Virus record (IMG/VR): IMGVR_UViG_3300017788_000023
Coordinates: 1-62,476 of that record
Direction: 5' to 3' (one strand)
Source of the DNA: a virus
Lineage: Duplodnaviria; Caudoviricetes
DNA: 62,476 nucleotides
Shown: positions 15,546 through 41,000 of the stretch, one piece after another
How the letters are laid out: each line of letters begins with the position of its first letter
Numbering within the stretch: the first letter of the stretch is position 1
Notes under the pieces: model-generated
Databases searched by the model: none
Seen by the model: only the letters and a program-made list of their open reading frames with translations
What the model was told of the DNA's origin: nothing
Program-made: the position numbers and the translations under genes

Positions 15546-16211
15546 TTATTCATTAAAACGACTATAAATGCTCCGAAACCATCCAGTTAAAATATATTTG
15601 TTTTTTGTAAATACTGTATTACCTCTATGTATATGAGTATAAGCAGCGGGCCAAAGAACAATAGTTCCAGCGGTAGGTTTAACTCTTAATTTTTGATGAA
15701 AAAATTCTGTTTCTGCTTCCCCATCAGGCATATCGTTTAGATAAATCATCCAGGTTACATGTCTGCTATTAAACCCTTGAGATGCGCCTATTCTTTCAGA
15801 GTGCCAAATATGATAACCACCACCAGGAGGTGTTCTCTGCATTTTTACTTCTGAAGATATCAAAGTTGTTGAAGTTAAGTCTGGATATTCTTTAGAATAT
15901 TCTTCGAATGCTTTTTGTAAATGTTCATAGCAAACGTCAGCTAATCCTTCATCAAGAATATTTAAATATAATGCAATATCACTTCTTCCAGTTTTACCTG
16001 ATTTAAATTGTTTATCTCCCAAAGATAACTCCACCTTGTCCTCTCCTGCTTCATCTCTTGACTCTTCTGGTAGAAGAGCATAATCCTGAGGAGATAAACC
16101 AAAATTCATTAATTTTTTATTCAATGTGAATTCAAACCATTTAATGTATTCTTCACACATTTCTATGGACATAGCATTTTCAAAAATTCCAATGTGATCA
16201 ATTATTTTCAT
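15546..16211 (-). CDS. 2OG-Fe(II) oxygenase
   Basis: GGYHIWHSE, WMIYLND, ETEF, WPA.YTHIHRGN, KYILTGW. Confidence 0.9.
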   Translation of the reverse strand: MKIIDHIGIFENAMSIEMCEEYIKWFEFTLNKKLMNFGLSPQDYALLPEESRDEAGEDKVELSLGDKQFKSGKTGRSDIALYLNILDEGLADVCYEHLQKAFEEYSKEYPDLTSTTLISSEVKMQRTPPGGGYHIWHSERIGASQGFNSRHVTWMIYLNDMPDGEAETEFFHQKLRVKPTAGTIVLWPAAYTHIHRGNTVFTKNKYILTGWFRSIYSRFNE

Positions 16212-16232
16212 ATTTAATTTGTTAGTTATTAA

Positions 16233-16240
16233 TATTTAGA
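16233..16240 (-). promoter_or_regulatory. Variant late promoter (TCTAAATA) for the oxygenase cluster
   Basis: CTAAATA about 22 nt upstream of the first oxygenase ATG. Confidence 0.5.
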
Positions 16241-16244
16241 TTAG

Positions 16245-17849
16245 TTATAAGGCACCAGAAACTGTTCCTGTGTACGAATATGCATATGCTTGATTAGCTC
16301 TAACTGCTCTTCCAGCAGCGCCAGGGCTGCCACTGCCGCTAACCGCGCCGCCTGCTTGACCCCAATCACCTCCATTTCCACCACTGTTTCCAGGATTACC
16401 TCTATTACCTGCTCCTCCAGTATTTCCCCTTCCTCCTGGATTCCCTGAATTACCTCTGTTCCCAGGGTTTCCAGCATTTCCGCGTGCTCCATTGTTTCCA
16501 GGATTTCCGTTATTTCCTCTATTCCCGTTATTTCCTCTAGTAACAACTGATTCACCACTCGAATTGCAATTTTGCCCGTTGCGCCTTATGAATCGTCTGG
16601 TCCAGGTGTTAGTGGCGGACTGGACGCCGCCACCACCAGGATTACCACCGCCACCACCACCAGCACCACTACCAGGGTTGCCATTGTTGCCACCACTGCC
16701 AGGCCATGAAGTTGGAGAAGGATTGCCAGCATTTCCTGGATTTCCTGGATTCCCAGGATTGCCAGGGTTACCAGCATTTCCGCCACTACCTCCAATTCCT
16801 CCACTTAGATAATTATATCCTCTTCCTCGTCCCCCAGCTCCACCAGATCCACCAGGACCACCAGGACCACCAGATCCTCCACCACCACCATTTCCACCAC
16901 TTCCGCCAGGTCCACCCCTTCCATTGTTTCCAGGGTTTCCAGGATTTCCGCTATTACCTCTATTACCTCCGTTGCCTCGGGCTCCTCCAGGACCAGTAAC
17001 AGTTCTATTTCCAGAGTTTGACGTTGACGTTGTACGACTGCAGTTGGCACCCCCACCTCGGCCAAAAGTTCCAGACCACCTGACGGTCGTTCGATCTGGC
17101 CTCGAAAGTGAATTAGCGTTTCCAGCGTTTCCAGGGTTTCCAGGGTTTCCAAATGCTCCAGCAGTTCCACCATTCGCCCCATTTCCATTACCACCAGTAT
17201 TCCCAGGATTCCCACCAGATCCAGGATTCCCAGCAGATCCAGTATTACCAGGATTCCCAGGATTCCCAGTACCGCCCCCGCCGCCGCCACCTCTAATAGA
17301 TCCACCAGATCCAGATACTCTATATCCAACAACAGAAATTAATATGGCGTCACCACCAGGATTTCCAGCAGCTCCAGGATTACTACCCCCAAAACCTCCA
17401 TCACCATAAATGTTTCCACTATTAATTTGAATATTAACATTACCAGCTACAGTTCCTGTTCCAGATGATAATGCTGTATTTGCAGCTGAGCTAGCGCCAA
17501 TAGTTCCACTAATTATTAGGCGCTTCGGAATTACTTTATCGTAGTTACTATTCCATAGAGTTAACGAGGAAACAGTAACGTTTACGTCAGTGCCAGTTTG
17601 AGTAACTACAGATTCTTTTATTGTGTTTCTAAATTTACTAGCTGAAATATTAGAATTTGTTGTTGGAACAGCAGCATTTTCAGTAGCATCATAAATGAAT
17701 GGTGCCGAAGTATTATTAACAGTTTTTCTTTTTAATTCACTGTACGAAATCGGACCAGATGTTACTTCTTTATATGTATTTCGTAGGGAAGAAAGAGAAA
17801 TTGGACCAGTCCCCCCAAAATTTTGAGTTGTCGCTGAGTTGAATCCCAT
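16245..17849 (-). CDS. Glycine-rich gp38-like tail fibre adhesin with Gly-X-Y (Gly-Asn-Pro) tracts
   Basis: IYGDGGFGG...GGDAI...IRGGGGGGG and [12 protein letters not shown]...GAAGRAV...GTVSG resemble T-even gp38; directly follows an S74-chaperone fibre gene. Confidence 0.7.
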
Positions 17850-17850
17850 A

Positions 17851-20800
17851 TTACTTATTCTTTAAGGTTTCTACTTCTTGCTTCAATTCTTTAATCGCTT
17901 CAATTAACAGAGGAACTAATCTTTCATATTTAATTGCATAATAACCATTATCTCTTTGAGTTACAATTTCTGGTAATACTTCTAGAACATCTTGAGCAAT
18001 TACTCCAGCTTCTCTTAAAGTTTGATCCTTTCCTTCTGCCTTATCATTCCAGTTGTAAGTTACACCAGAAATCTTATCAACTTTATTTAGAGCATTTTCA
18101 ATAGGTTTAACATTTACTTTCAATCTGCTATCAGATGTGGCGAATGCAGTAATATCATCATTACAAGTGAAAGCACCTACATTGCTAATCGTAGCAACAT
18201 CTGTACCACCTCTACGGAATTTAACAACTTCGGCACTACTACTACCAGCATTAATATACCATCTGTTTGAATGATACTCTATCTTTCCTTCATTAGCAGC
18301 AGCATCTCCAGTCCAATTAGCAGTAGTATCTTGACGGAAGGAACTAGTTCCCCCTAGACGTAAAACACTATTTGTACCACTAGTGAATGTGAACTGAGCA
18401 CTGCCAGCAAGACTACCACTATTATTATATTGAACTTGTGTATTGGATCCTCCAATATCAAATAATGCCCACTCAAGACCAGAAGCAGTTGATTTAATAA
18501 ATTTACCAGCACCAGTATTTGCTAAGTAGGTAGTTACTCCACTTCCAGATTGATAAGGAACACTACCAGCAGCACCACCAGCAAGATTAGTGGCAGTTGT
18601 TGCTGTGGTTGCATTTCCTGTTAGAGCAGCAGTAATTGTACCAGCACTAAAGTTACCACTCGCGTCTCTAGCAACGATGTTTGTGTTACCACTTGAAGAA
18701 GCATTAACATTAATAGTTCTTGCTGTTCCTCCATCAAAGGTAGAACCAGAATTGTAACTTAAGAAAGTTCCTAGAGATAGAGCAGCAGCTGTAGAAGCGG
18801 TAATAGTAATATTAGCACTACCATTGAAAGATACTCCATTTATATTTCTGGCAGTTTGTAGCGTCGTGGCAGTAGTAGAATTACCAGTTAAATTAGCGGT
18901 AATAGTGCCAGCAGAGAAATTACCATTGTTATCTCTCTTAACAAGAGTATTATTAACATTTAATGTAGCAACTGGATTATTACCTGTGTGGAGAATAGTA
19001 TACTTAGTTGAAGTACCAACAGACCAACCACCCCAGAATAGATCATTGGTAGCACCATCAAGACCAAAATAACCAGCGTAATCTCCAGTTACATGGAATG
19101 TAAGGAAGGCATCTCGACCAACAGTATCATTTACAATTGTAAGTGTCTTATTACCAGTTCCAACACCTTGATCACCACTTTCAGTATTAATAACTACTTT
19201 GTTGCCAGCGAGAAGATTTAAATCTCCTGACATGGTATCGCCAGTTTTTAATACGTTTAGAGAAGCAGCTCCAGTTAACGTGGCGGTAATAGTACCAGCT
19301 TCAAAATTGCCAAGAGAATCACGCTGAACAGCGGTACTAGCATTGTTTAGTGCTGAGAAAGTAATATTACCTTGGTTCCAAATTATATTACTGTTTATAG
19401 AAACAGAGTTAGCATTTGATGCTAGAATGTTTAAAGAACCAGATCCATTTGTTGAGTTACCGCCAGAAACAGCAAGACGTACATTGTATAAACCAGCAGG
19501 AGAGCTACTAGATCTAAAATCAATTACTGGGACAGAAGCAGTTCCATCAGTTCTTCCAAGTGATAATCTAGCAGTTCCAGAAGACGATTCTAGTTTAGCA
19601 ACGTCAAATGTTCCAGCAAAATCACTGATATTATAATCATTAATAATTTCATTTGTTTGAGTATTACCAATTCTGAAAGCATCAACAATGTTACCAGAAA
19701 GTAATCTACCAGTTAAAATACTATAATCTAAAGTATCATCAATATTATTGAAAGTTGTTACATCAACAAGTTCAAAATCACCAACTTTAATACCAATAGC
19801 ATCAAACAAATCAATTGTTAATCCAGCAACAAATGGTGCTTCTGAAAGAATCTTGCCAGAAATATAGATGCTATAGAATGTTTGAGAAATATAATTTTTT
19901 ATAGTTAAGCTAGTATTGACTCTTGTTGCGTCTAAGAAAGAGGAAAGGTGAGAAGGACCAACAATACCAGAGTTAATATTATAACCATTTTGATAGAATA
20001 CACCTTGTCTGCCATCAAGTACGTCGGCGTCTAGTCCAGTGCCAACACCATCATTGATAGATGTCCAAACCTTTGCCCAAGAACCGAATGTCGAAACACC
20101 AGTTCCAGAACCACGGATCCACAGGTTATTGTTATCAGTGAAAGCAAGTTGCCTTACACCACCACCAGAAGCATCCGTAGAGGTTCCAAATTGTCTGTAT
20201 GTAATAACACCGTGCCTGACTCCACCATCAGAAAGACCGTCAGCAGTATTGTTTCTTGTATCAGCAACAATACCTTCATTAAATGTTGATGGTGAAGGAG
20301 AAGAAGATGGATTATTTACTTGAGTAACTAATCTTAAAGTATTAGCAGAATTCCCAGCAATATCAATACCATACAAACCGCTGCCTAGTTTATCTGGACC
20401 AATCGAAAGATTGATTAGATTTTGACCATCTCGGTAGAAAAGCCCTTGCTGACCATCAAGTAAGTCAGCATCAAGTCCAGAACCTGTTCCTGTCTTAAGT
20501 TCTATTGAACCATCGCCAGATGTTCCAATATTGAATTGTGATTTTTTGAATCTAGCAACACCAGTATTTCCATATTCATTTGCTGCGAGTGTCTTATCAT
20601 CAACACGTTTAATATCAATTCCTACATTAGCAAAATTCTTTACGCTAGTATTGACTTTACAATCTAAAACAGCATTAGCTCCAAAACCAAGAACGACTGG
20701 CATCTGTACGATAGAAAAATCTGCCGAATAACCAGTTCCTCCACTAGTCACTAAAACAGAAGTTATACTTCCTCCAGTAACAGTAATAATTCCTTTTAAC

Positions 20801-23800
20801 CCAGTACCAGTGCCACCAGATAAAGCGACATCAAAATAAACACCATCTGCATAAGAAGATCCCCCAGAAGTTATTATAACTTTATCTACAAAATTACTTA
20901 ATGTAAATGTAGAATCTAATAGAACAGGAGATTCTGGTCTATTAAATTGAATAACAGTATTCTGTGGAATCAGTTGAGTTACGGATGTTGAAAGAGTAAC
21001 AACTGTGAAAGAGACATTATCTACTATAGTCACAAATGTGTTTGCCACAGTTGTTCCTGCTGGTATACCAGGAGCAGTGACCTCATGCCCAATTAAAATA
21101 TTATTATTTAATTTAAATTTCAATACATTTTGACTATTAGATGTTTGATCTGTTGTAAAATCAAAATATCTTCGTTCTGCTGGTTTGATGGATTGTACAG
21201 CAGCAGCAAAAGAAGAATCTCCTCTTAAGAATGTGAAGGAGTTTGCTTCTCCAGCATTACCAGCAAGTCTTGAAGTTGAAATAATTCCTGATGTAATATC
21301 TTGGGCAGCAATTGAAGATGTTGAAAGAGATACCCAGTTACTTGCATTTGATCCAGATGTGTTTACAGTTCTAGTGACAGGAACTGTGACAGGAACTGCG
21401 TTGGTAGATTTAATTGTATCACTGTCAGTAATTTTAATATTATTAGCAATATCAATATAAACACGAGATTCAATTAACGCAACAGCTGTCGCTTGTGTTC
21501 CACCAACTCCAGGAGCAGAGAAAGTAACTGTTGGTGGTGTAGTATAACCAAATCCTCCAATATAATTATTGTTCGATACTATTTTTACTGTAACTACTTT
21601 ACCATTTACAACAGTACACGTAGCAGCAGCAGAAACTCCCCCAGATTGTTCTGGTGCAGTAATACTCACGGAAGGTGGAATTAACTCACTGTACCCAGAA
21701 CCTTGATTAATAATATTGATTTTGAATACAACACCTTGACGATATTCTGTTATTTCTCCTTGACCAGTAGAAACACTACCAGTTAGAAACTCACCTGACG
21801 CAAATTGTAAAGTAGTATTTACAGCAACAGCAACAAACTGGCTTTCTAAATCATTGTTTAAAATAAATGACGTAGTTGATCCAAGTTCGATAGCAATATC
21901 ACCAGCAAGTGGACCTTCTAAAGCAAGTCTTTCCGTTGTATTTTGAATTGTAAATACGTTGAATGGTCTTAGAGCTGGAATTTGATCTAGAGAAATCTTA
22001 CCAGAATCAGTAAGTTCTACAAGGTTTCTTGGAACAGCGTTAGTTGAATATGGTTTGTTAAGGTATTGACCTAAGTTATTTGAAATGTAATCCTTAATAG
22101 CTTTCTGCGTTGAAATTTTTGTGTCAGAAGCAAAGTTTCCTCCTAATGTATTTGAAGCATCAAATCCAGTAACAACAACGTCGCCACCTTTCAACTTAAG
22201 GAATTCAACTTCCGAGATCGAAACTGTACCAGTGAATGTAATATTACCAGTTCTGTTTTCAATCTTAGCAAAGTAACCTACTTTGAAGTCACCAAGTTCA
22301 TCAGTACCAGAAGTATAAACACGTCCATATTCTTGAGATACTTGTTCTAATGCTTCATTTTTAATACCACCATTTTCTGGGAGTGCTCTATAGTCGTTAC
22401 CAGATCCAGCATATTCCCATGTGTGAGAAGACGAGTTGACAATAGAGGGTCTGTGTAGACGAACTTGCTTACCTACAAGCTCAGCATTACCGACAGTGAT
22501 TGGTTGACCATTGCTCTTTCTCTTAAGCAGGATTGCCTCGTTAAGATCAATAGTTGAAGTAAATGGAGGACCAACTGTAGTTTGTCTTACTCCTTCAATA
22601 AAGTATTCAATATTAGAATTTTGGTTTTCGTAATCAGCAAATTTAACAATATAATGCTCAAGTGGTTCTCTACCAAGACCGCCAACTGTAAATACAGTTC
22701 TACCTGTAGCAGTTGTAGTAACATTGGTGATAGTTCCTATATCAAAAGAATATGGCTCTAACCTAAATCCTTTAGCTCTTAGAGCAAACGTACCAAAGTT
22801 TGTAGCAGAGTTTGTAACAGAAGCATAACCACCAGTATCAGCAAAGATACCATCTTGAGCAAATAGAACGAACACAGAAACTAACTGTGTGTAACCATCA
22901 TTTACAATTCTATAACCAGTCCCACCAAATGAAATGATAGTGAACTGGGCAGCAACCATTGACTTACCCTGATTTGGGAAAGTAGCTTTGGGCGCAGCGG
23001 ATCCAATTGCTGGATTTAGACCAGGGCGAGGGCAGTTTGGTTGTCTTACTTTATCACCATCAATCTCACAACCGCCACCACCAAGGAACGAAATTACAGA
23101 AGCGTTTTGAATGTATGGTGATGCTTCAATAAATGGTAGATCTGCCCAGGTGGCATCTATGCTAACTCTCTTATTGTCAGCATCATAAATTGTATTTTCT
23201 GGATATACAACTGTTGGATTATAAAGAGTTCCATAACTCTTAGTAACTACACTACCATTTGCTAAGATATCATCTAAAATAGCAAATGATGTTGTGATTG
23301 CTGTAGCAACATTAGCACATGTTGGAGTATTTGGATCAACAATAGTTGTCGAATCAATAAATTGTGGAGCAGTAGCAAATTCTGGAACAAAAACAGGACC
23401 AGTGCCATTACCTGTCTTCCAATTTCTCATAGCAAGAATAGCTAAATCTCTTACTTTTATAAATGCCTGTCTAGTAGGTAGTATTTGATCTGCTGGGAGT
23501 CCTGTTAGAGCATTTCCAGTGTAATAAGATTCTCCAGCAGTAACTATTCCAGCGTTGCCTCCAAGAATTAAATCTCTTCTAAGTGCTCCAAGAATTTTTC
23601 CGATGTCTCTACGGCATTTTGTTGTTGTGGTAGTTAAGAAAGAACCTTCATTAACAGTAGGAAGTGAATTAAGATTACCCGCAGAAATAGCAGTAGTAGC
23701 AATAGCAATAAGAGTACCAATGCTATTACGTACATCAATACAAGATTCTGAATTATTATTATTGTTTAGTTCTCCTTGAGTACCAAAACCAAAACCTGGA

Positions 23801-26800
23801 TTTGTTGGTAGATATCCTGGGTTTGGATCTCCAGTGATTGTTAGATCTTTTGCGTATAACTGATTGGTTACAGCTAATCTCATCACATCTCTAGCCTTAT
23901 TAAAAGCAGTGATAGATTGAGATTCTTCGTTTACTAATCCGTTTGAAAGTGGAATTGTATTGGTTATAAAATATCTCTTGACAGCTCTAATTATATTCTT
24001 ATTACCACCGTCATAAAGGTCAGAAGCAACAGCATCAACAATGATACCAATGTCTCTACGGCACTTACTTTCGCCAGCAATATAAGTAGTAACAGTTTGA
24101 GCGGGAAGACCAGTTAAATTACCAGCAGTAATTCTGTCAGTAATCAATACAGTTGAGTTGACTATTGCTGATTGTATGTCAGAACAAGCGGTAGAAGATG
24201 TATTAGGTACGACTCCTCCTCCACCACCAAAGTTAGCAGGACCAGGAGTAACAGTGAGATCCTTGTAGAACAAACCGTTAGTAACGGCTTTTTTCATTAC
24301 ATCTCTTGCTTTGTTAAAAGCAACTACAGATTGTGCTTCTTCATCTACTAATCCATTACTAATAGGAGCGTTGTTATTAAAATATTGAAGAACAAATTTT
24401 CTTGAATACTTATTACTTCCAGAGAAAAGATCTAAAGAAACAGCATCAACAAAAATGCCCAAGTCTCTGCGGCACTTAATATTACCACTTGCTTTTCTTA
24501 CAGCAGGAAGACCTGAGGTATTACCAGCTTGAAGTGTGGTTGTAAGAATAGCAATAAGGGTGCTAACAGCACTTCTAACATTAGCACATGAAGATTCGCT
24601 AGTATTTGATAGTGTATTAGGATCTGCTGTGATGGTTGTGTCCTTAACATATAATTGATTTGTTAGGGCTCTGTTCATCCAATCTCTTGCTTTGTTAAAA
24701 GCAACTACTGATTGACTAATTTGACCTGCCAATCCATTTGATAGTAGAGTAGTGGAATTTGTAAAATATCTTAATGTGTGATCAATAATTCTTGAGTTAC
24801 CGCCTGTTTGGAGATCGTAAACAATAGCATCAACAATGAGTCCAATATCTCTGCGGCACTTAGCTTCTCCAGCAGGAGTTACACTTTCGCCAGTAGTAAT
24901 TACTGGAAGAGCATTAGTGCCATTGATATCACCAGCAAGTATTCTTGTCTGAGCAATAAGTGCTAATGTTTCTATTGCTATTTGTACATCAGCACAAGCA
25001 GCAGCATTTCCTGATTGTAAAACAGGAATGTTGGGACCAGGAACTCCATATGTAGCAGTGCTAGAAGTTATGGTAAGATCTTTGATAAGAAGTTGGTTAG
25101 TTATAGCCTTCTTCATCATTTCAGTTGCTTTGGTAAAAGCAGTATCAGATTCGAGTTCTTCCCCAGCTAATCCATTGACAATTTTAATACCAGTTTGTGG
25201 ATTGAAGTATAATTTAGTAAATGCTACAGTAAATTGATTTCCTCCATCATAGATGTCTAGACCAATAGAATCAACAAATAAACCAATATCACGCTTACAT
25301 TTTGCTTCGCCAGGAGTTACAAAAGAATCTCCATTTGTTACGGTTGGTAAAGCATTATCACCATTAATATTACCAGCAGTAATTCTAGTAGTAACCAGAG
25401 TGGTTAATGTTAATAACGCTGCTTGAACATCAGCACAAGCTGTTGGATCAGTATTAGAAACTATCGCCCCTCCTCCACCAAAATTAGCAGGACCAGCAGT
25501 AATACCGAGATCCTTATATGCTAATTGATTGGTTACTGCTAACTCACATTGTTCTCTAGCTTCATTGAAAGCAAATACTGATTGTGCTTCTTCGCCAGAT
25601 AAACCATTAGAAATAGCAATACCACTTCCATCAAAGTACAGTTTAATAAATCCAATTGTATATTGATTTCCTCCAGTTATCATGTCAAGAGAAATAGCGT
25701 CAACGAAGAGACCAATATCTCTCTTACACTTATTGATATCCCCTCCAGGAACAGTGAATCCAGGGAACTGTGCTTGCGTTGAATCAAAAGCAGCATTAAT
25801 AATTTGTGTTCTGTTCTTCTGAATTAAACGATAACCATCTTTAAATCTAGATCTAGCATTAGTTTGAGCATCCCCAGGATAGAAGAAATCGGGGTGATCA
25901 ACAGCAATTTGTGCTGCTCCTGTATCGATAATTTGTTGGCGATTCTGTTGAATTAATCTATAACCATCTTTAAATCTAGATCTAGGTCCAGTTTGTGGAT
26001 CACCAGGATAGAAGAAATCAGGGAACTGAATAGCAATTTCAGCGGCAGCTCGTACCTTGATTTCTTCTTTATTAGCTCTAATTAAATCAACAGAATCAAG
26101 ATATCTGCTTTGATAATCTCTATTAACATTTGGTAGACCAGTTAAGTTACCAGCAGTTAATCTAGCAGTAATAATTGCTGTTAAGTTAGAAATATAAGTT
26201 TGAATATCAGAGCAAGCAGTGGAATCAGTATTTGGTACTGTAGCTACACCAGAAGCATAAACAGCAGACCCAGGAGTGACCGTTAGATCTTTAGCAAACA
26301 ACTGGTTGGCGACTGCTAACCTCATTTGATCTCTTGCTTTATTGAAAGCAGTATTCGACTCAGCAATTTCATTAACCAGACCATTTTGAAGTAGAGTTGT
26401 GGGACTAGTAAAATATTGCTTTAAGAAATTAATAGAATTTGAATTACCACCTAAGAATACGTCAAGAGATATAGCATCAACAAAGATACCAATATCTCTC
26501 TTACACTTAGCTTCTCCAGGAGGAACAGTAGTTGATACTGATTCAGCAGGAAGACCAGTTACGTTACCAGCAGTAATTCTATCAGTAATAATTAGTGTTA
26601 AACTTGTAATAGCAGTTTGAACATCTGAGCAAGCAGTAGAATTAGTATTACTAACATTACCGCCCTCGCCATAATTAGTAGGACCACTAGTGACAGTGAG
26701 ATCTTTGATTGTCAGTTGGTTAGCAACTGCCTTTTTCATTTCATCTCTTGCTTTATTAAAAGCAAGAACTGATTCTGCTTCTTCTCCTACAAGACCATTT

Positions 26801-29800
26801 GTAATAGGAGTGCCATTATTGAAGTATGAAAGAACAAATTGACGACTGTATACATTTCCGCCAGCTTGAGCAATGTCTAGAGATACAGAATCGATGAAGA
26901 TACCAATGTCTCTTTTACACTTAGCTGTATTTGTTGCGTTGATGACAAAAGATGGGAACGCAGGAGCAATTGCGGCAAAAGCAGTATCAATAATTTCCTG
27001 TCTATTTAATTGTATTAATCTATAACCATCCTTAAATCTAGATACAGCAGTTGTCTGAGCATCTCCAGGATAGAAGAAATCTGGATGCTGAACAGCAACT
27101 TGAGCAGCAGCACGATCAATAATTTCTTGTCTATTTTGTTGAATTAAACGATAAGCATCAGCATAACGTGAACGCTCATTAGTTTGTAAATCACCTGGGT
27201 AGAAGAAATCAGGGAACTGAACGGCGACTTCAGCAGCAGCTGTATCAATAATAGTTTCTTTGTTTTTTTGAATTAGACGATAAGCATCGTTGTATCTGCT
27301 TTGAGCATTAGTTTGTGTATCTCCAGGATAGTAAAAATCTGGATGCTCAACTGCTACTTCTGCCAAAGCACGATCAAGAATCTCATCTCTATTATCTCTA
27401 ATCAGATTAGTAGAATCTTTGTATCTAGCAGCAGAAGGAAGTGGACTTAAGAATAATTGAGGAAAAGCATCTTCAATATATCTTGAAGCTTCTTGTTTAA
27501 TAAATTCTTGGTTTCTAGCAATTAAATATCCAGATTCTACAAATCTATCAATTTGATTATTAGAAATAATAGCAAGGAATGTATCTGCTAAGTTATTGAT
27601 AGCAGATGCTACGTTAGCACAATAAGGCCAAACAGGATCAAGTGTTACATCTGGGTCAAAATATCTATCTACATTAGAAAATTGTGGATTATATAAAGCT
27701 CCATATTGATCAAGTCTCCAACCTCTCATTGCTAGGATAGTAAGATTCCTGGCAATATCAAATGCTCTAATTGTTTCTGAAAGTTCTGTAGCAATATAAC
27801 CAACACCAGTTCCTATAACATAATACTTAGCAGCTTCAACGGTGTTATAGTTGCCACCATACTCCATATCACGAACGATAGCATTTACGAAATGACCAAT
27901 ATCTCTAATACACTTTGCTTCATCTGGATTAGTAAATTCTGGAAACTCAGCAATGGTTTGCTTATAAGCTTCGTCCTTGATGAACGCAAGATTATTGGTA
28001 ATTAAATTTCTAGCATCTTGATATCTTCTAGCAATATAAGGAGTTTCTTCAAATTTATTGGGAGAGTTTAATAATGATAAAGTTACATAATATGAAAAAT
28101 GGGATACGGTAGCACCAGATGGAGCAAAATTACTATCCGTAAATCCAGGCATGTTATCTTTAGGAATAACAAATCTTCTGGATCTTGAGTCGTCATCAAT
28201 TAGTACTCCAGTTTTATCTAAATCATAAATTCTTTGAATACCATTTAAGTTTGCTAACGATGCTGGCAAACCAGAAATGAATACTTCCTGCCCTTCATGA
28301 AAATCATGAATATTCTCTACGCCTTGTAAATCGTTTGTGTAGAAAATAATACCACCAACTTGAGCTTGTTGTGAACCATCAATTCTAGAAATAGGTATAG
28401 TCTTTGTAACATTAGTACCAGTATTAACAACTTCACCTTCTGCTCTAATAGAAGATAAACTTACAAGTGTAAACTGAAATTCTCTCGCCCAATTAGTTCC
28501 ATTCCAAGTGTAAGTAATACCATCATTTGGATGAATATATGTATCTCCAATTGCAGGAGTTGATGGCCATCCAGTATAGTCTACAGGAGCTTCGATATAA
28601 TAACGAGCACTTTCTCCCTGAGCAAAAACACCAATTGAAGTTTCGAAATCTACTGATCCTTTTTGATATGCAGTTGGACCTGTAGTAGTATTAAACGTTA
28701 CTGTTTTAATAATTCCAACGGCGCTGGAGTTGACACCATTAATTGTTTCGCCAGCAACTAAAGCATCTAAACCACCGTTAAAATCAAAAGTAGATCGGAA
28801 TAAAGCCTTACCAAAAATTTGGTGCCCAACTGGGAATCTTCTTTTGAAATCACCGCCATAAGTTTGATTGTAATAAATTCTCTGTTTATCATCAAATGAA
28901 CAGGCAAACTTCCACGTAGAAACTGGATTTCCAGAAGTATCTAATTTATCCCTAAATGTTATTCCACTGATATAATTTTTATCAGCAAATTTAAACATGT
29001 CTTTGCCAGGATTATTCGGTCTGACTAATACAATACGCAAAGAGTCACCGACAACTGAACAATCTGGGGGGATAGAAATTGGGTTGTCTTCCAAATAATC
29101 GCCACCAGCAATAACAACAGTTTCTTTTATATTCGTAGATTCTGTTGCTAATTGGCAAGCGCGTTTAATAGTTCTTACTGGAGAAGCAACGGATCTACCG
29201 TCGTTTTGATCATCACCGATTTGCTGTGAAACATAGATTCTACCACCAACGTCGTTGGTAGCAAGGTTTAATACGTATTCGGTGGTAGCAATTTTAGTTG
29301 TATTATCTCCTAGTGGTGGAGTAATACTTCTTGGCCAAGATAGTTGACCGTAATAAGGTTGAGTTGGATCATCAACTCTAAAACCAATATGATCTAATTG
29401 TACTGTACCATTTAAGGCTTGACCAGTCCTGTGAAGTGGAGGAAATGCTCCAGTGATTCCAGTATTAAGTGCTCGATAAACGTTAGATTCAAAATGTCTA
29501 ATTTGATTTTTTGCTAACGAAACATTAGCAACCCAAACTTGCTCAGAATTATTATCAAATACTTTTAAAGAAGGCGCACGTATATTAAGATCTGCTGTTA
29601 CAAAATTTCGTAGGTCAAGATTTAAAATTCTTGCTGTATCAGAAATAATTGAAGACGATGTTCTGATAGCACCATTAACATCAACTTCATATTCAATAAT
29701 ATCTAAAGTACAAGTTGCTGCCGCACCTGCCCCAGTAGTATCTCCAACTGCATTTTGAATTGTAATTGTAGGAGCACTAGTATACCCAGATCCTGGATTT

Positions 29801-30129
29801 GAAACAACAATAGCAATTACTCTTCCATTTGAAAGAATAGCAGTAGCAGTAGCTTGAATAGCACCAAGAACAGCTGGAGGAGGAGCAATTTCTATAATCG
29901 GTGGACTGGTATAACTAGCACCTTGTGACGTAACAGTAATAGTATCTACACGACTTCCAGTTCTATTAATACCAATTCTTGGTAATTTTGTATTGGGATC
30001 AATTGAAGCTCTAAAAATTTCTTTTTCTTCTGATCCTTGCCCAGATCTAATTATAAAATTATCACTCCCGATAATTTTAGGTGTATTAGATTTGATGTAC
30101 TGTTTATCAGAATTAAATTCTAATCCCAT
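17851..30129 (-). CDS. Giant (4092 aa) tail fibre / virion protein: split beta-helix, nine phycobiliprotein-like repeats, C-terminal peptidase S74 chaperone
   Basis: C-terminal SDSRLK...GVIAQDV...PE.V...[15 protein letters not shown]; DADLLDG repeats; [11 protein letters not shown] repeats; KCxRD repeats. Confidence 0.85.
23260..28035 (-). repeat. Protein-level repeat array: nine ~40-aa N-units and nine ~130-aa KCxRD core units
   Basis: KCxRD Cys codons at 27910, 26917, 26503, 25726, 25297, 24856, 24472, 24061, 23614. Confidence 0.9.
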
Positions 30130-34836: not shown

Positions 34837-35041
34837 TTCTTACGATTTCTCTTAGAAGATTTTTAATATCTGATAATTCATTTTTTAAACTTTCAACATC
34901 ACGTTGAAGATTTTCGATAGATGCACTGCCGTTACGCAGTTTTTTTACATCTTCAAATATACCTTTGTCAGTATTTATAATGGCACCAGTATCGTTGTCT
35001 CTGACGAGATAATCGTAATCCCTTACCTTAATATAATTCAT
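34823..35041 (-). CDS. Small protein with C-terminal coiled coil
   Basis: LVRDNDTGAIINTD...LKNELSDIKNLL; coupled to neighbours. Confidence 0.75.
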   Translation of the reverse strand: MNYIKVRDYDYLVRDNDTGAIINTDKGIFEDVKKLRNGSASIENLQRDVESLKNELSDIKNLLREIVRNANT

Positions 35042-38000
35042 TAGAATGAAGCAACGATTCTAACGTCTTGAATTTTTGGAACAAATACAGGTTGCGAACT
35101 TCTCAGTACAATTTTAACAGCAAAAGAAGAGAAATCAGAAAGATCACGAACACTAAATTTATATTCTTTATACGAAGATTGATTTTCTAAATATCCAGAA
35201 ACAACGTTATCACTGGACGGAGTAACTATAATATCAGGATTTCCATCTTCGTTGAAATAATTCCAATCTAAATCATCAAAATTATATTGAGAACTTGCTA
35301 GTTTATATTTGTAAAAAACTTTAATATCATCTTGCTCGAAGATATTAGCAGTCAATCTTACATCAATACAAGTAGATGGATTTTCTAATGAAATTTCTTT
35401 TGTAACGTACTTCGCTATAGATGAACTATTTTTAGAAGCAATTTCTGGAACATAAATTGCTCCTGTAGAATAAGTAATAGATTTAATCTCAGCAAACGCT
35501 CTTTCAGACGAAGCTAAATTATCGTAAGATAATAAATCTCCTACTCTGAATACATCTGGTACTTGAGCACTTGTGTTACCTACAAATGCTACTCTAGCAT
35601 ATGGAGATACAGTTGCTAAAGCAGACTCGTTATTATTAATAGGATTCTTGTTATTAGCAATACGCAATTCTTTTTTCCTATCATCCCACAGAACAACTGT
35701 ACCACTAATTACATTAGTATATTTTTTAGTCAAATCACTCTTGTCAAACGCAGTGATAATTGAATTTTTTTCAAAAGTAAATGGAACCTCAGTAACACCA
35801 TTTGGGGTAGAAAAAATATTAGTTGGGAATTGATCTAGACCACTGATATCATCAAAAAGTAAAGTTTCATTTGCTTCAAAAATAGTATCAGTGAGCATTT
35901 TTAGATATAGCGTTGTAGTTGATTTTTCAACTTTTACAACGACTCCTTTTGCTTTTGAACTATATCCAGTTACAGTTTTAACATTTGTTGTACTGCCAAG
36001 GATATTACTTTCTGAAATAGGACCTAGCCCAGTTCCGCTGTATATGACTTTATAAACAGGATACAATTTAATAATTTGATCTTTTCTACCAAAACGAGAT
36101 TCTGTACCATATGATTTCTCTACTTGATTATGAATCAGTTTGATCGAACTAGTTCTTAAATCAACAACAGGGGAAAGATATGATTTATCTGATTTTAGTT
36201 CTAGTTTATACAATAAAGATTCCCCGATAACGGTAGAATTTTTTAATTCATTAATTCTAGAAGCGAGAACTTTTTGATTGTTAAAAATGTGCTCTTGGTT
36301 TAAAAATGTTTTTTCAAATGGTGATTGAGAATATGATGAATATACTGTAGAAGTACTATCGACTGGAACGATATTTGTTGTTTTAACAAATGCTTCAACT
36401 TTAGTAGATGGTAATGATAGAATACCAACTTGCGCGTATAACTTTTCAAATTTTCTATTGTATGATGCTAATACAGTAGTACCTCCACCAAGTTCATTTG
36501 ATGTTGCTCTGATATTAGTATTAATATTATAAAACTCTAATCCAGAATTAATTACAGTAAATAATTTATCTACTACTAATTCCGCCGATATTCCTCCAAA
36601 ATTATTAATAGATTTAAATGCCACGTAAGACTTACCACTGTCTTCAAATCCATTATTGAGATGATTTACTTTTACAATTTTATTATTATTTCTGAATAAG
36701 TTTGAAGTTGCTGTTCCATCAGATGATGAATCTGCTTGGAATGGATTTGCGTCTAAGACTTCATATCCAAGTGCTTCATTTTTTAGATTCAATACTCCTG
36801 CTCTTGAAGTATCAAATTCAGCTCTAAACAAGGTAAATTTAATATCTTCAAATAAATCTTCAGTCCAAGTATCTACGTTTTGTGATTTGAATACCGAACC
36901 AATCAAGGGTTGAGTAGTTACTGCTGCGTTGGTTACTTTTTCATTCTCACCTAATTTAGAAGACCAGATTTCGTAATCAGTTGAATCTGATTCGACCGCA
37001 AACGCATATTCGGAATCATTTTGAAGATAAATGGGATGATCAAATTTAAAAAATGTTGGAATTGTTGATTGTTCTGTTTCTGTATCTACTGCGACGCCCA
37101 TTCTAACTGCTGGCGTATCAATTGTTATAAACGATTTGATAGCCGCTCCTGCAGGAGCACTTCCCGTACCATTAATAATTATTGATGGTGCGCTTGTATA
37201 TTCTGAACCAGATATAGTTACCTCAGCATCATATACATTACCATTAGATACATAAACTCCAGCAGCAGCAGTAATACCACCAACTAATTGAGGACTTTCT
37301 ACCGTTAGAGTAGCAGTTTCATATCCAGAACCAACGTTTAAAACTTCTAATCCTGATAGCCTGCCAGAATCTTTAGCAATGGTTACTTTTAAAGCTGTAG
37401 AAATTGTGGTGCTTTTAGCATTAAACAAACTTAAACTATCAAAAAGCAAATCTTCCTCTACAAATACTTTACCATTATTGTTAGAAAGTACAATTGTGTA
37501 GATTTGATCGTTTGATAAAGTAAATTCTCCAGTAATAGATGGAATTAATTCAATTTTATTTTTATCAAGAACAGTTTTAACTGGACCAGATGCTTTCGAA
37601 TTTGCCCCCGTAGCTAACTCTCCTTTATTAATTTTCAAACTACCATTTGTAAATACTCTTAAATATGTGTCTGGGAGTAATGATTTTTCTGTTCCAGGAA
37701 CAATATATTTTCCTGGTTTGCTGCTTTCAGTATTTGTAAGGTATACTCTTACAGGAATAGTAGAACTTTTTTTAGCAAAATACAAATTAATTCCAGTTAA
37801 GAAAATTCCACCAGGACTATTTTCAATTTTGAATGTTTGTGATAATGGGTTTGGTTTAATTTTTGCTCCATCAATTAATTGGATTCCTTCATCTGATTTT
37901 TGAAGGGCAGGAATTGTAGAAGTAATTGAAGATGGATTTGCTGGCAATGAACCAGCAACGTGATAAACAATACTAGCAAATGTATCTACATCTGCGTCAG

Positions 38001-41000
38001 TACTTCCCTCTGAATCGGAAGTAAATTTAATTGTTTTAGATCCAGTAATAAAATACAACTCATCTCCTTCAGAATCATACGCAATATTTTTAATATCTGA
38101 AGGAACAGAAGAACCTGATACGGGTGGAAGACCAGCAGGTATTAAAATTATGCCACTCGCATTTCCATTTTCGTCGGTAGTGATACCACTTTCGAATGTA
38201 CTAATAGAATTACCAGCAACTCCAGTAAATCTAAAATCTTGAGCTATCCACCTGTTAATGAATTTACCATCGATAAAACCAAATAACTTAGTTTTTGGTT
38301 TCATTCCAGTTAGAACAAATTTGACTAATTGGGTTTCACAGAAAAATTTGATATTTGAAATAATATTATTTCCACCAACATTAGTTGTAGAAACTCCCTG
38401 AGCTAATTCATTATTTTGTGGACTGACATTAGATGAACTTGCCACACTGGCACTTACTATTGAAGAAGACGAAGAAAAATTAATATCATTTAATGGAGAT
38501 GTATTGAAGAAAGTTCTGTTAGTGCCAACCCAGTTAATAGAATAGTTATTGTAAATACTTGCCAATCCTTCACGAGTACTATCCTTAGCATAGAACACTG
38601 AAAATACTTTGCTATCATTATTTAAAATGGCTGGAAATTGTTCTTGATTGTACCACTGGTCTACAGGTGGATCTAATTTTACACCACCGACATATTGAAC
38701 AACAACAAATGGATTGATATTAATTGTTTTGGTGGCGAATGAACTACCAATATATGGAATACTGTTGTATTGTAAAGTTACGACGCCATTAGATATAGTG
38801 TATCCATCTAATTCTCTTTCTTCTTTTCTGGTATTAATTTCTTTTAGTTTGAACGAAGACTCAAAAGACCTTGGACGTAGAACTGATTGCTGAGTATCAA
38901 TAGCACATTTGTAATCTGGCGAAATTAAATTTCCAATATTGTGAGATTCAAAATTATCTACAATAAATCCATTCTTAAATCTATCAAGACCTATCTCATT
39001 TTTAACTTGCATGTTGAGTGCTTGCTGTTCCAACATACTAAGTAAAGTGTATTTTTCAAGTCTTTCAACTCTTTTTTCTAATTTTCCGATATCACGCATA
39101 GTGTATCGTTTATTATCTACTGGAATAATATTTACATCATTAGCAGACGCAGTAAATGCTGGTAAGTAATAATAATAAAGTGGAATGGCGTTATCTAAAT
39201 CTGTTGGTTTTGTTGGATTTAATGATGGATTTCCTTTCTTGATTACGAAGTCACCATTTTTATTTAAGAATAGACCATCAATTCTATCTAGATATTGTAC
39301 CAAATCAAATGATAGACTGAATTCAATATTATTATCTGACGCAATAGTTCCTGCGGTAATACCCCCTGCTCTAGTAAAACTAGGAGGAGAAGATAAAATT
39401 GAAGTGTCTTGGTATCCACCAATAGTACAAGTAGAATCTACTTTTGCTCTAAAATCAATAACATCCTTTAGAGATACTTTACCATAGACAGTGGAATTGA
39501 AATTTGGTACTTCGTCTTCCGAGATTCCAGCTTCGTGTAAATAAGAATCAATAGTACAAAAGTCTCCTTGAGAGTGTTCAAAATAATCAAAACCAATTAA
39601 CAATTGTCCAGTAGGCGCATCATATCCTGGTTTTAAGACCAGACGAGCAACATCATAAAATGTATCTCTTTGTCCATCATCAAAAGTAAATCTGTCGGTA
39701 ATATCAGTTCCTGCTAACAGATTTCCTTTTGAGTCAGCTACTGGAGCAACAGAAACTGTTCCCTCGTAAACGTATTTAAATTTATAGACATCAGAATAAG
39801 ATATTGTTTCTGATGCGTTGGTGTCATAATCTACTCCACGGAAAGGAATTACTCTATCTCCTGGAGAAAAAACTACAATTCTTTTGTTTTCATATGAAGT
39901 TTTTAATCTAGGTTTTGCTTTGTTAACTTCTATGGTGGCAGTTAATTTAATTTTAAAGTTGTCAAAATTATTAATTGTTCCAAAAAAATTAGTCGGTAGA
40001 TTAACAGTTACACTTCCAGCTGTCAATCCAGTTGCGCTATCGGAAGAATTTGTAATAATTACTTGATTTTGTGTTAGATATAAAATGTCTCCTTTACTAA
40101 CTGTAGTATTTGGATTACTTTGATTATCTGGATCTAGTATTGTAATCAAGAAATTATTTTCACTGAAAGCTACAAATCTTTGTGTCCCGTATGGAAGTTG
40201 AGCGGCAAAAGTGATATTACCACCACTACTTGTAATTTTTGTAATAAAATCTCTTCTTAAATAATAACTAATTTTTGAATTTTCTGGAGTAGAAGAAACT
40301 GAAGTTACATACTTTGCTCCAGTTGGAATTATTAATGAAGAAGAGGTGGAATTTTCAACTTTTGCTCTTAATCTAATAATATTGGAGTTAACTACATTTT
40401 TTTGTAAAGCACTATCGAGATAAATTCTTGATTTCAATAGCCCTTCAGGTTTAGTTACATATTGTACAGTGGATCTTACCACTGTGTTATCATTATAAAC
40501 AAATTGTACAATATCACCTTGTACTAAATCTGGTGATGGATCCCCAGAGAATCCATTACATTCAATAAATTTATATCCTTTAGTTCCAGAAAAAGTAAAA
40601 TCAGTTAACGTTTTATTACTTAAATAAGAAGTATTGAAAGATTCTACGTCTGCTGTAAAAATGTATTTGTCGTTTGCTCCAAATTGAGAGAACATTGACT
40701 TAACATTTGTTGGACCGTATGTTACTACAGTATTCTTGTATAACACAGGGAAAATAGATGCTCCAGATCCTACTGTAGCAGTAACAGAAGGTGTTGAATT
40801 ATAAGTTGATGAAACTAAATCTCTATCGGCAACCTCTACTTTGTAAATTGTACCGCCGAATAAATTAAGTTTAATTGCTGCGCTTTCATAACCAACACCA
40901 TTTATTAAAACTTTACTAATAACCGAACTTCCAGATGAAGTGGTGGTAGTATATCCCGTTCCCCTATTATATACTACAAAATGAGAAATTGTATTTTCTC

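Follow-up and report, generated by a model that had tools for sequence, protein, structure and literature searches.

Phycobiliprotein-type proteins and their counterpart in a phage fibre

The beta subunits of phycobiliproteins (PBPs)—CpcB, CpeB and the cryptophyte beta chain, represented by Pfam family PF00502—are antenna subunits of 160-185 aa. The phage units described here are tandem pieces within a 4092-aa virion protein, the middle third of which is made of two PBP-derived piece types: the N-unit, a hairpin of helices A and B (43 aa), and the core, which spans E-F'-G-H in ~135 aa. Units and beta subunits share a globin-like set of helices (A, B, E, F', G and H) in which Cys-x-Arg-Asp opens helix E and P-G-G stands ahead of the B-E loop; in both, the G-H loop holds a second Cys, placed 19 residues ahead of where helix H ends. 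Unlike the beta subunits, the phage unit as modelled singly shows no internal X-Y arm, its B-E loop is 6 residues shorter, its identity to PBPs is 12-19%, and six of its nine copies lack helices A and B.

Fusion of a PBP-type domain into a protein of at least 850 aa is known from the core-membrane linker ApcE, which attaches its bilin without a lyase. In three cyanobacterial genomes, we observed partial PF00502 matches in open frames of 862-1153 aa, which we take to be ApcE. In ApcE, a component of the phycobilisome core, linker repeats come after a single PBP domain; the phage protein, by contrast, has nine cores along with N-unit arrays of their own and fibre domains. The bilin biosynthesis-associated globins of Rockwell et al. 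2023 (PMC10151467) are described as distant globins of PBP type that do not belong to phycobilisomes; in the available portion of that paper, phages are mentioned for PcyA/PcyX reductases and not for globins.

N-unit/core arrays like ours occur in S-PM2 p091 (GC 830) and in the GC 734 'short tail fiber' giants (S-PM2, Syn1 and S-RSM4, with 5, 5 and ~9 cores), at 44-50% identity over aa 1341-1745. S-PM2 p091 also has its baseplate context in common with our fibre gene, whereas the GC 734 paralogue adjoins cpeT and gp12; the number and order of units differ as well. Existing annotations call these giants nothing more specific than tail fibre, short tail fibre or structural protein, and no description of PBP-like modules in phage fibres was found in the literature searched.

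A giant fibre gene with nine cores and separate N-unit arrays

The window—the whole stretch of 62,476 nucleotides that was analysed—is a fragment, ~32% complete, of a marine cyanobacterial phage. The ORF list and translation place an ORF of 4092 aa on its minus strand (17851..30129), and the stretch 23260-28035, singled out in an earlier sequence-only reading, corresponds to aa 699-2290. The product of this ORF is a giant protein of a T4-like cyanomyovirus, either a fibre or attached to the baseplate, and is the orthologue of S-PM2 p091 (T4-like GC 830). In keeping with a tail fibre or spike, it has a C-terminal PF13884 domain, matches to the PHROG tail-fibre families phrog_5342 and phrog_4527, and adjoining baseplate genes (gp6-like and gp8-like); the surrounding gene order matches S-PM2 p087-p094. 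From the annotation of its homologues, the protein is probably located in the virion. Its features are as follows.

17851..30129, minus strand: whole giant fibre ORF, 4092 aa (ORF list, PHROGs, gene context)
17962..18135, minus strand: C-terminal Peptidase_S74 intramolecular chaperone domain, aa 3999-4056 (PF13884, E 4e-17)
27919..28026, minus strand: N-unit 1, aa 702-737, equivalent to helices A and B, directly before core 1 (N-unit HMM)
27529..27936, minus strand: core 1, aa 732-867, Cys 740 and 837 (motif regex, N-unit/core mapping)
26920..27429, minus strand: array of four N-units, aa 901-1070, the last fused to core 2 (N-unit HMM; PF00502 46 bits)
26533..26940, minus strand: core 2, aa 1064-1199, Cys 1071 and 1167
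26113..26526, minus strand: core 3, aa 1202-1339, core-only, Cys 1209 and 1306 (no PF00502 match when alone)
25723..26109, minus strand: array of three N-units, aa 1341-1469, the last fused to core 4 (N-unit HMM, AF2 hairpins)
25327..25743, minus strand: core 4, aa 1463-1601, Cys 1468 and 1565 (AF2, Foldseek, VIA, PF00502 23.8 bits)
24886..25323, minus strand: core 5, aa 1603-1748, core-only, Cys 1611 and 1712 (AF2 four-helix pattern like core 4)
24490..24879, minus strand: core 6, aa 1751-1880, core-only, Cys 1758 and 1848
24088..24492, minus strand: core 7, aa 1880-2014, core-only, Cys 1886 and 1982
23644..24084, minus strand: core 8, aa 2016-2162, core-only, Cys 2023 and 2130
23248..23637, minus strand: core 9, aa 2165-2294, core-only, most divergent, Cys 2172 and 2271

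Peptidase_S74 chaperone domains are typical of both tail fibres and spikes.

The sequence-only reading had described nine cores, each with a second Cys near its end, and both observations were reproduced: the pattern K-C-x-R-D-[IL]-G occurs nine times in the ORF, at exactly the Cys positions it gave (740, 1071, 1209, 1468, 1611, 1758, 1886, 2023 and 2172), and a second Cys follows 91-108 residues downstream in 9/9 cores (837, 1167, 1306, 1565, 1712, 1848, 1982, 2130 and 2271). The looser pattern C-x-[RK]-D-[ILVM]-G gives nine occurrences in a six-frame translation of the whole 62-kb window, and the core motif is therefore not a chance one, as all nine lie inside this single ORF. The nine N-units it listed were about right in number; an HMM built from six of them recovers eight at E<0.01, and the ninth, a more divergent unit near aa 875 directly upstream of the four-unit array, is recognised by eye only. 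Its picture of nine domains, each N-unit joining a core, stands only in part. The pieces run in the order N C (N)NNNN C C NNN C C C C C C, with an N-unit directly ahead of cores 1, 2 and 4 only, and these three pairs are predicted to form whole globin domains. The other six cores are E-to-H half-domains without helices A and B, and the remaining N-units form separate arrays and cannot each be joined to a core.

Homology to phycobiliproteins and predicted fold

Judged from sequence profiles and predicted structures, the fibre units are phycobiliprotein homologues, which bears out the globin-fold relationship proposed from the sequence alone. Against the whole protein, PF00502 (phycobilisome protein family) scores 93.1 bits, the gathering cut-off being 22.2 bits. 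When scanned alone, unit 4 gave 23.8 bits, unit 1 (N1 plus core 1) 21.6 on profile positions 33-87, unit 2 15.4, and the four-N-unit array 46, in 3 stretches over profile positions 28-69; the six core-only units scanned in the same way gave no PF00502 match at E<=10. An N+core profile run against the PDB matched CpcA residues 39-103 (E 0.001), with 51 of the 53 matches being of PBP type, and cores alone reached only E 0.016-2.3 over 24-27 residues against PDB sequences. The hhalign comparison with 15 real PBPs placed unit residues 6-113 on CpcB 38-144 with 94% probability (E 1.4e-7), covering 97 columns from helices A to G. Some unit pairs share only 21-23% identity with one another.

For the fold comparison to PBPs, an N-unit plus core served as the query, namely N-unit 9 with core 4 (aa 1425-1602), for which AF2 returned a model with pLDDT 90.2 and pTM 0.88. 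All Foldseek matches listed were PBP beta chains (TM 0.61-0.65, probability 1.0), and VIA superposed model residues 1-160 on phycoerythrin/phycocyanin beta chain residues 33-172/177 with Z 17.4-15.8 and an rmsd of 2.0-2.2 Å over 136-139 residues. Where an N-unit stands directly before a core (3/9 cores), the two are predicted to form a complete A-H beta-type PBP globin domain without the X-Y arm; the single-unit model aligns to PBP chains only from chain residue 31-34. A larger model spanning aa 1341-1748 (408 aa) is compact (pTM 0.85), with helix hairpins at model residues 2-28, 42-71 and 87-114, and some of its alignments reach chain residue 3, the preceding N-unit lying in the place of the X-Y arm (157 aligned, rmsd 3.4).

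Bilin-site residues and their conservation

The first and second Cys of the units are, by alignment and modelled geometry, the equivalents of the beta-82/84 and beta-153/155 bilin sites—consistent with the pair of sites named in the sequence-only reading. For the first, HMM and hhalign comparisons align unit Cys44, Arg46 and Asp47 with PBP Cys82/84, Arg84/86 and Asp85/87. The second (model Cys141) is placed by helix-H spacing: it lies 19 residues before residue 160, which aligns with the last residue of phycocyanin beta (172) or phycoerythrin beta (177), and in phycoerythrin beta and CpcB (CpcB sequences taken from genomes) the beta-153 Cys also precedes the helix H end by 19 residues, a placement that assumes an ungapped helix H.

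Across 86 units from 14 sources, the best-kept positions include Cys1 (79/79), the site Asp (81/81) and Arg (72/80) and Cys2 (66/67), together with positions outside the sites, e.g., an Asn (81/82) and a Tyr (79/82). The 6-residue shortening of the B-E loop, seen by hhalign relative to CpcB, is accompanied by the loss of PBP-invariant residues: CpcB Arg91, Tyr95 and Asn72 align with Asp, Leu and Asp in the unit. The Asp at the beta-39-equivalent position is kept even in N-units with no adjoining core, and its role may therefore be structural.

Distribution in cyanophages, cpeT and light-dependent adsorption

We detected the module in 220 phage records, all of them cyanophages (220/220). Among 17 complete cyanomyovirus genomes, units and cpeT occur together in 12 and are both missing from 3; another 2 carry units alone, and none carries cpeT alone (Fisher p 0.015 with relatedness ignored; the three genomes without both may be one clade). 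In S-ShM2 and P-SSM7, units are present and no cpeT was found above threshold; a tblastn search with S-PM2 CpeT retrieved 113 phage records, versus 220 for the unit. The cpeT gene lies just upstream of the module-bearing fibre gene in at least 11 phages. In S-PM2, Syn1 and S-RSM4, it is 0.7-4.5 kb upstream of the unit-bearing giant fibre gene on the same strand; in G004, a 98%-complete close relative of the window in which cpeT is present twice, the arrangement is the same; and, by coordinates, it is the same in S-RIM44, S-CAM3, S-RIM32, S-H9-2, S-WAM2, S-CAM1, Sf-FP1 and Sf-FR1. No cpeT was found in the window itself, with its ~32% completeness. Gene order is strongly conserved among these phages, and the cpeT neighbourhood may be inherited rather than selected. 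Of the enzyme link suggested earlier, the part concerning CpeT-like lyases is supported by co-occurrence and neighbourhood, while bilin reductase and haem oxygenase genes did not track the module across the phage genomes examined.

Most cyanomyoviruses carry cpeT; they have kept no other lyase gene from the cpeESTR operon of the host. T-type lyases act on the Cys-153 position, according to a review, and the role of phage cpeT was called unresolved by Sullivan et al. 2010. As for adsorption, S-PM2, P-HM1 and P-HM2 adsorb only in the light and P-SSM2 adsorbs in the dark; the light requirement of S-PM2 is independent of host photosynthesis, and light-sensitive receptors and/or tail fibres have been proposed (Liu et al. 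2019). We found units in P-HM1, P-HM2 and S-PM2 and none in P-SSM2.

A putative bilin on the fibre and the alternatives

The explanation we tentatively favour, at not quite an even chance, is that at least some unit Cys receive a thioether-linked bilin, yielding a putative pigmented virion. Attachment would take place during fibre synthesis in the infected cyanobacterium, the second Cys being served by the phage's own T-type lyase CpeT and the first by a host S-type lyase or autocatalysis, and the resulting particle would carry covalently bound bilins. This reading is favoured because the units match PBPs in profile and predicted fold, because bilin-site residues are among the best-kept positions in 86 divergent units, because the module is confined to cyanophages and co-occurs with, and neighbours, cpeT, and because the light-requiring S-PM2, P-HM1 and P-HM2 carry units and the dark-adsorbing P-SSM2 has none. 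It is weakened because helices A and B, which contribute to both bilin pockets in PBPs, are missing from six cores, because the B-E loop is shortened and several PBP-invariant residues are lost, because two conserved Cys per extracellular module are the usual signature of a disulfide, and because units outnumber detectable CpeT, with S-ShM2 and P-SSM7 lacking cpeT. Cyanophage particles that are pigmented or fluorescent have not, to our knowledge, been reported.

That a bilin would also render the conformation of the fibre, and hence adsorption, light-dependent strikes us as unlikely, if worth stating. The same doubt applies to the putative picture of a bilin-studded fibre acting as a photoreceptor that gates adsorption, with CpeT at the beta-155-type Cys and host lyases at the beta-84-type Cys; if true, it would account for the role of phage cpeT and for the photosynthesis-independent light need of S-PM2, P-HM1 and P-HM2. 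More modest uses of a bilin would be stabilisation of the fold or quenching of photo-oxidative damage.

The most serious alternative, a real possibility that we nonetheless rate as less than probable, is a PBP globin domain captured long ago that now serves, without bilin, as a compact helical building block of the fibre, its conserved Cys, Arg and Asp contributing to folding, to post-lysis inter-unit or inter-chain disulfides or to salt bridges. Six half-domains among nine cores, the separate duplication of N-units and cores, and a 408-aa model as compact as a structural stack would all suit such a block, as would the low identity to PBPs, the B-E loop deletion with its missing invariant residues, and the roughly twofold excess of phage records with units over those with detectable CpeT. 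However, conservation in the 86 units reaches beyond core hydrophobics to the bilin-site residues, and the co-occurrence and neighbourhood of cpeT, as well as the restriction to cyanophages, would be left unexplained. An intradomain disulfide fits poorly with a model lying at 2.0 Å on PBP beta chains because the two Cys carry separate bilins in that fold, and also because three units in relatives, which lack the second Cys and helix H, keep the first Cys; a unit-to-unit disulfide cannot account for both Cys of unit 1, which is isolated.

Far less probable is an intracellular decoy or docking role, in which the units would bind host lyases, linkers, NblA-type factors or free bilins before or during assembly, making the assembly of fibres depend on the condition of the host antenna. 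The retention of lyase-recognised sites, a phage cpeT with no known target and the adjacency of the fibre gene to cpeT in many phages speak for this idea; against it, the protein looks in every respect like a virion fibre (S74 chaperone domain, tail-fibre PHROGs, baseplate gene context), and nine to twelve copies per genome inside structural giants would be an odd design for a regulator. Least probable of all is a convergent or spurious likeness, i.e., a chance helix-E motif in a helical repeat with AlphaFold recalling the PBP fold, for although cores alone match PDB sequences weakly and single units lie near the Pfam cut-off (15.4-23.8 versus 22.2 bits), the profile-profile alignment of 97 columns (94%), the structural match over 136-139 residues at 2.0 Å, the predominance of PBP-type entries (51/53) among PDB profile matches and a second Cys that falls on the beta-153 position independently of sequence alignment all argue against it.

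Implications for cyanophage biology

The retention of both pigment-attachment Cys suggests, without proving, a light-absorbing pigment on the virus particle. A phage protein with a beta-155-type site, often encoded beside cpeT, is an obvious candidate substrate for CpeT, and two old cyanophage puzzles—why most cyanomyoviruses carry cpeT and why some cyanophages adsorb only in the light—become directly testable. If no bilin is bound, the fibre is still a clear capture of a host light-harvesting fold, split into two repeat types for a virion fibre, and PF00502 matches on such giant proteins in databases need a careful label. If the fibre does bind bilin, it would be the first pigmented, and possibly photoreceptive, phage virion, and an antenna protein fold would have been re-used outside photosynthesis.

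Genomic context and repeat architecture of the giant fibre gene

The repeats at 23260-28035 occupy aa 699-2290 of a single giant open reading frame (ORF), which falls in PHROG tail-fibre families, carries a Peptidase_S74 chaperone domain at its C-terminus (Pfam) and has as neighbours gp6-like and gp8-like baseplate genes, plus two further giants:

17851..30129, minus strand: giant fibre ORF, 4092 aa (ORF list and translation)
35041-43410, minus strand: giant ORF with DUF4815, 2789 aa, without the Cys-x-Arg-Asp motif
45291-56186, minus strand: giant ORF with a YHYH domain and a baseplate-wedge match, 3631 aa, without the Cys-x-Arg-Asp motif

Gene order around the fibre matches p087-p094 of cyanophage S-PM2, with p091 (T4-like GC 830) as the orthologue. 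Given this context and the annotation of homologues, the giant protein is probably part of the virion. The record itself is estimated to be 32% complete. A composition outlier lies at 16001-18000 (GC 0.438 and GC skew -0.256, versus about 0.30-0.38 around it), within which a 534-aa ORF (16245..17849, minus strand) has no Pfam match.

The motif K-C-x-R-D-[IL]-G was found nine times in the fibre, with the cysteines exactly where the sequence-only reading had placed them (740, 1071, 1209, 1468, 1611, 1758, 1886, 2023 and 2172); a looser form also gave nine occurrences when the whole window was translated in six frames, and all of them lie in this ORF. The second cysteine claimed for each core was likewise recovered in 9/9, 91-108 residues beyond the first. 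Over ~139 aligned columns, the cores share 23-55% identity with core 4, and the 13 invariant columns include the motif Lys, Cys, Arg and Asp together with the second Cys. Helix G of core 4 holds an additional Cys (aa 1528, about nt 25546-25548), and a Cys occupies the same column in the orthologous units of three relatives (L001, L003 and L005).

Eight copies of the 43-aa N-unit were detected by HMM, and a divergent ninth, near aa 875, by eye only. The pieces follow the order N C (N)NNNN C C NNN C C C C C C, so that an N-unit directly precedes only cores 1, 2 and 4, and the proposed joining of each N-unit to its own core fails. The claim of nine phycobiliprotein-like domains therefore survives in part: there are nine cores homologous to phycobiliproteins, but six of them lack an adjacent N-unit and are half-domains. 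Pairing of one N-unit per core in trans was considered and rejected on the N:core counts (8-9:9 in the window, 5:5 in S-PM2 p091, 6:9 as raw hits in S-RSM4 and 3:5 in Syn1).

Sequence homology to phycobiliproteins

The profile checks proposed earlier bore out the homology. The Phycobilisome family PF00502 matched the whole fibre at 93.1 bits (cut-off 22.2). Piece by piece, this signal comes from the N-units and extends through helix E where an N-unit is fused to a core: unit 4 (aa 1425-1602) scored 23.8 bits over profile positions 36-98 and the N-array 46 bits over positions 28-69, and units 1 and 2 reached 21.6 and 15.4 bits, respectively, while the six core-only units, scanned singly, gave no PF00502 match at E<=10. 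A cores-only profile, searched against PDB sequences, found CpcA residues 77-104 first, weakly (E 0.016), with 32/37 matches of phycobiliprotein type and the other five being P14, an LRR protein, two TIMs and an aldehyde dehydrogenase. A profile of 16 N-unit-plus-core units from the window and IMG/VR relatives reached CpcA residues 39-103 at E 0.001, with 51/53 matches of phycobiliprotein type and two triosephosphate isomerases; a 35-row profile with the N-unit columns dropped reached only E 0.22.

In hhalign comparisons with 15 real phycobiliproteins from three cyanobacterial genomes, the unit profile aligned at 94% probability (E 1.4e-7, 97 columns), pairing unit residues 6-113 with CpcB 38-144. 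Unit Cys44, Arg46 and Asp47 fall on CpcB Cys82, Arg84 and Asp85—in agreement with the proposal that the first cysteine is the 84-equivalent—and Asp7, Ile19 and the P-G-G match CpcB Asp39, the invariant Ile51 and P69-G70-G71, respectively. The phage unit is, however, six residues short in the B-E loop, and the invariant CpcB residues Arg91, Tyr95 and Asn72 are replaced by Asp, Leu and Asp. In a search of 5.8 billion sequences with a length limit of 95-312 aa, the N-unit-plus-core profile retrieved no cellular phycobiliprotein at E 0.01; its three matches were all apparent fibre fragments. For core-only unit 5, the best ESM Atlas score was 0.87, to viral hypothetical proteins, and no phycobiliprotein cluster was returned.

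Predicted structure of the units

Unit 4 was modeled with AlphaFold2 from 35 phage-only rows and no templates, yielding six helices with a pLDDT of 90.2 and a pTM of 0.88. Among the matches listed by Foldseek against the PDB, all were phycobiliprotein beta chains (TM 0.61-0.65, probability 1.0, E from 4e-4). VIA-align, in which helical models can score up to Z 14 without kinship, gave Z 17.4-15.8 and an rmsd of 2.0-2.2 Å over 132-139 residues, placing model residues 1-160 on chain residues 31-34 to 172-184; among the 50 matches listed, 50/50 were of phycobiliprotein beta type. The predicted structural match thus spans the whole domain, in agreement with the sequence evidence, and the globin-type fold anticipated for a joined N-unit and core is borne out in the model. 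By this superposition the N-unit matches helices A and B and the core matches helices E, F', G and H; the modeled unit has no X-Y arm.

Model residue 160 falls on the final residue of phycocyanin beta (172) and phycoerythrin beta (177), and the second Cys (model 141) lies 19 residues ahead of it—the distance that, in genome-derived CpcB sequences, also separates the G-H-loop Cys from the C-terminus. If helix H is ungapped, this puts the second Cys at the predicted beta-153/155 position, as the sequence-only reading had proposed.

A second AlphaFold2 model, built from 11 rows, covers aa 1341-1748 with three N-units and two cores and reached a pLDDT of 82.2 and a pTM of 0.85. Core-only unit 5 repeated the four-helix pattern seen in the unit-4 core, and in some VIA-align rows the preceding N-unit stood where the X-Y arm would be (157 residues aligned at rmsd 3.4, model 53-244 on chain 3-177). 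A complex prediction for the unit-4 orthologue and the CpeT of G004, a close relative of the window's phage, with alignments as input, returned 'no answer' (score 0.00) and speaks neither for nor against binding.

Distribution and conservation of the module

A tblastn search with aa 1341-1745 matched 220 of 50,697 phage records, whose organism names begin with Synechococcus in 154 cases, Cyanophage in 55, Prochlorococcus in 10 and Marine in 1. BFVD matches comprised tail or structural proteins of cyanophages, proteins of uncultured Caudovirales and several nameless entries; none that bears a name is termed phycobiliprotein. With megablast, the unit region matched only S-PM2 (73% over 7% of the query).

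In a set of 86 units drawn from 14 sources, Cys1 was kept in 79/79, the Asp in 81/81 and the Arg in 72/80 (otherwise seven Asp and one Glu), and Cys2 in 66 of 67 aligned units, with 19 gapped. Three units in relatives retain the first Cys and lack helix H and the second, each being the last core of its array:

L004, 3520-3948: truncated last core
L005, 3919-4347: truncated last core
L007, 1875-2303: truncated last core

In L004 and L005 an N-like unit follows, then a variant start D-C-L-D-D; in L007 the N-like unit is present and that start is absent in the stretch read.

Association with cpeT and bilin synthesis genes

Co-occurrence with cpeT, the gene of a T-type bilin lyase, was scored in 17 complete cyanomyovirus genomes picked beforehand (S-RSM4 and the 16 genomes that Sullivan et al. 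2010 studied), using the core profile and Pfam PF06206, with Syn1 and S-RSM4 scored from annotation and tblastn instead.

Units and cpeT in 17 cyanomyovirus genomes
Units present, cpeT present: 12/17
Units absent, cpeT absent: 3/17 (P-SSM2, S-SM2, S-SSM7)
Units present, cpeT absent: 2/17 (S-ShM2, P-SSM7; sub-threshold candidates in both)
Units absent, cpeT present: 0/17

The one-sided Fisher p is 91/6188 = 0.015, a value that ignores relatedness, and the three genomes lacking both may be one clade. Sullivan et al. give a CpeT-like gene in 12/16 genomes (PMC3037559), against 11 here, so one of S-ShM2 and P-SSM7 probably carries a divergent copy. In P-SSM4 (NC_006884.2), 16642-17064 encodes a 148-aa CpeT-family ORF (PF06206, 37.4 + 22.9 bits); a 2010 review states that this phage has no cpeT (PMC2984593).

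The two are also neighbours. S-PM2, Syn1 and S-RSM4 have a second unit-bearing giant (GC 734) ahead of gp12, and cpeT is encoded on the strand of this giant, 0.7-4.5 kb upstream of it; the same arrangement occurs in G004, which is 98% complete and has 12 core units in two giants, its units being 80% identical to those of the window. By coordinates, cpeT is upstream of a unit-bearing giant in eight further phages, and one IMG/VR contig holds fibre locus and cpeT together.

G004, C1:14624-15124 and 53278-53697: CpeT-family ORFs, one canonical (133 bits) and one divergent (28 + 23 bits); 182-aa open frame

Between cpeT and the giant fibre gene, S-PM2 (L174 5308-5889) and Syn1 (L169 11111-11683) carry a 2OG-Fe(II) oxygenase gene (T4-like GC 104), whose product might modify the fibre. 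In the S-PM2 RefSeq record (NC_006820.1), the 11.3-kb giant CDS 165928-177267 encloses 16 tRNA features and is itself tagged in tRNA style (S-PM2t009), which looks like a coordinate or annotation error.

The earlier suggestion that the module could be a substrate for phage bilin enzymes gains support from co-occurrence and proximity for the CpeT-like lyases, and none for the bilin reductases. PF05996 and PF01126 (bilin reductase and haem oxygenase) both occur in P-SSM2, which has no units, and in P-HM2, which has them; they are absent from unit-bearing S-PM2 and G004, and also from the window, as had been stated. Bilin synthesis genes were accordingly rejected as partners of the module. That P-HM2, a phage of bilin-poor MED4, brings ho1, a reductase and cpeT, whereas phages of bilin-rich Synechococcus bring only cpeT, fits the bilin idea, for few genomes.

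Does the fibre bind bilin?

Profile alignments and models together show a fibre built of phycobiliprotein-derived pieces that retain both attachment cysteines and the Arg-Asp pair. Bilin may be covalently attached to the units, a reading we hold tentatively, at a little under an even chance. It is favoured by the bilin-site residues being among the best-kept positions of very divergent units, by the restriction of the module to cyanophages and by its tracking with cpeT. An intradomain disulfide would be at odds with the phycobiliprotein fold, in which the cysteines carry separate bilins—those of the two cysteines in beta chains lie ~34 Å apart, centre to centre. Against attachment stand the six half-domain cores, the shortened B-E loop with the loss of several invariant residues, and a co-occurrence that takes no account of phylogeny; moreover, we know of no reports of pigmented virions. 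A purely structural apo module that binds no bilin is accordingly a serious contender, itself somewhat short of even. An intracellular docking role of the units appears improbable, and a spurious resemblance to phycobiliproteins is hardly credible.

If bilin is attached, the fibre might also gate adsorption by light, which we consider rather unlikely. P-HM1, P-HM2 and S-PM2 need light for adsorption (PMC6628666) and P-SSM2 adsorbs in the dark; by the core profile, units occur in the first three and not in P-SSM2, a match that is anecdotal in four phages.

In full-text searches of the main text of freely accessible articles, we found no description of phycobiliprotein-like domains in phage structural proteins. 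A PF00502 match is precomputed for at least one fragment in a protein collection, so databases already flag the likeness silently. What is new here is the setting of a phycobiliprotein-type globin, the virion fibre, and the way its repeats are arranged; bound bilin would make this a new kind of virion.
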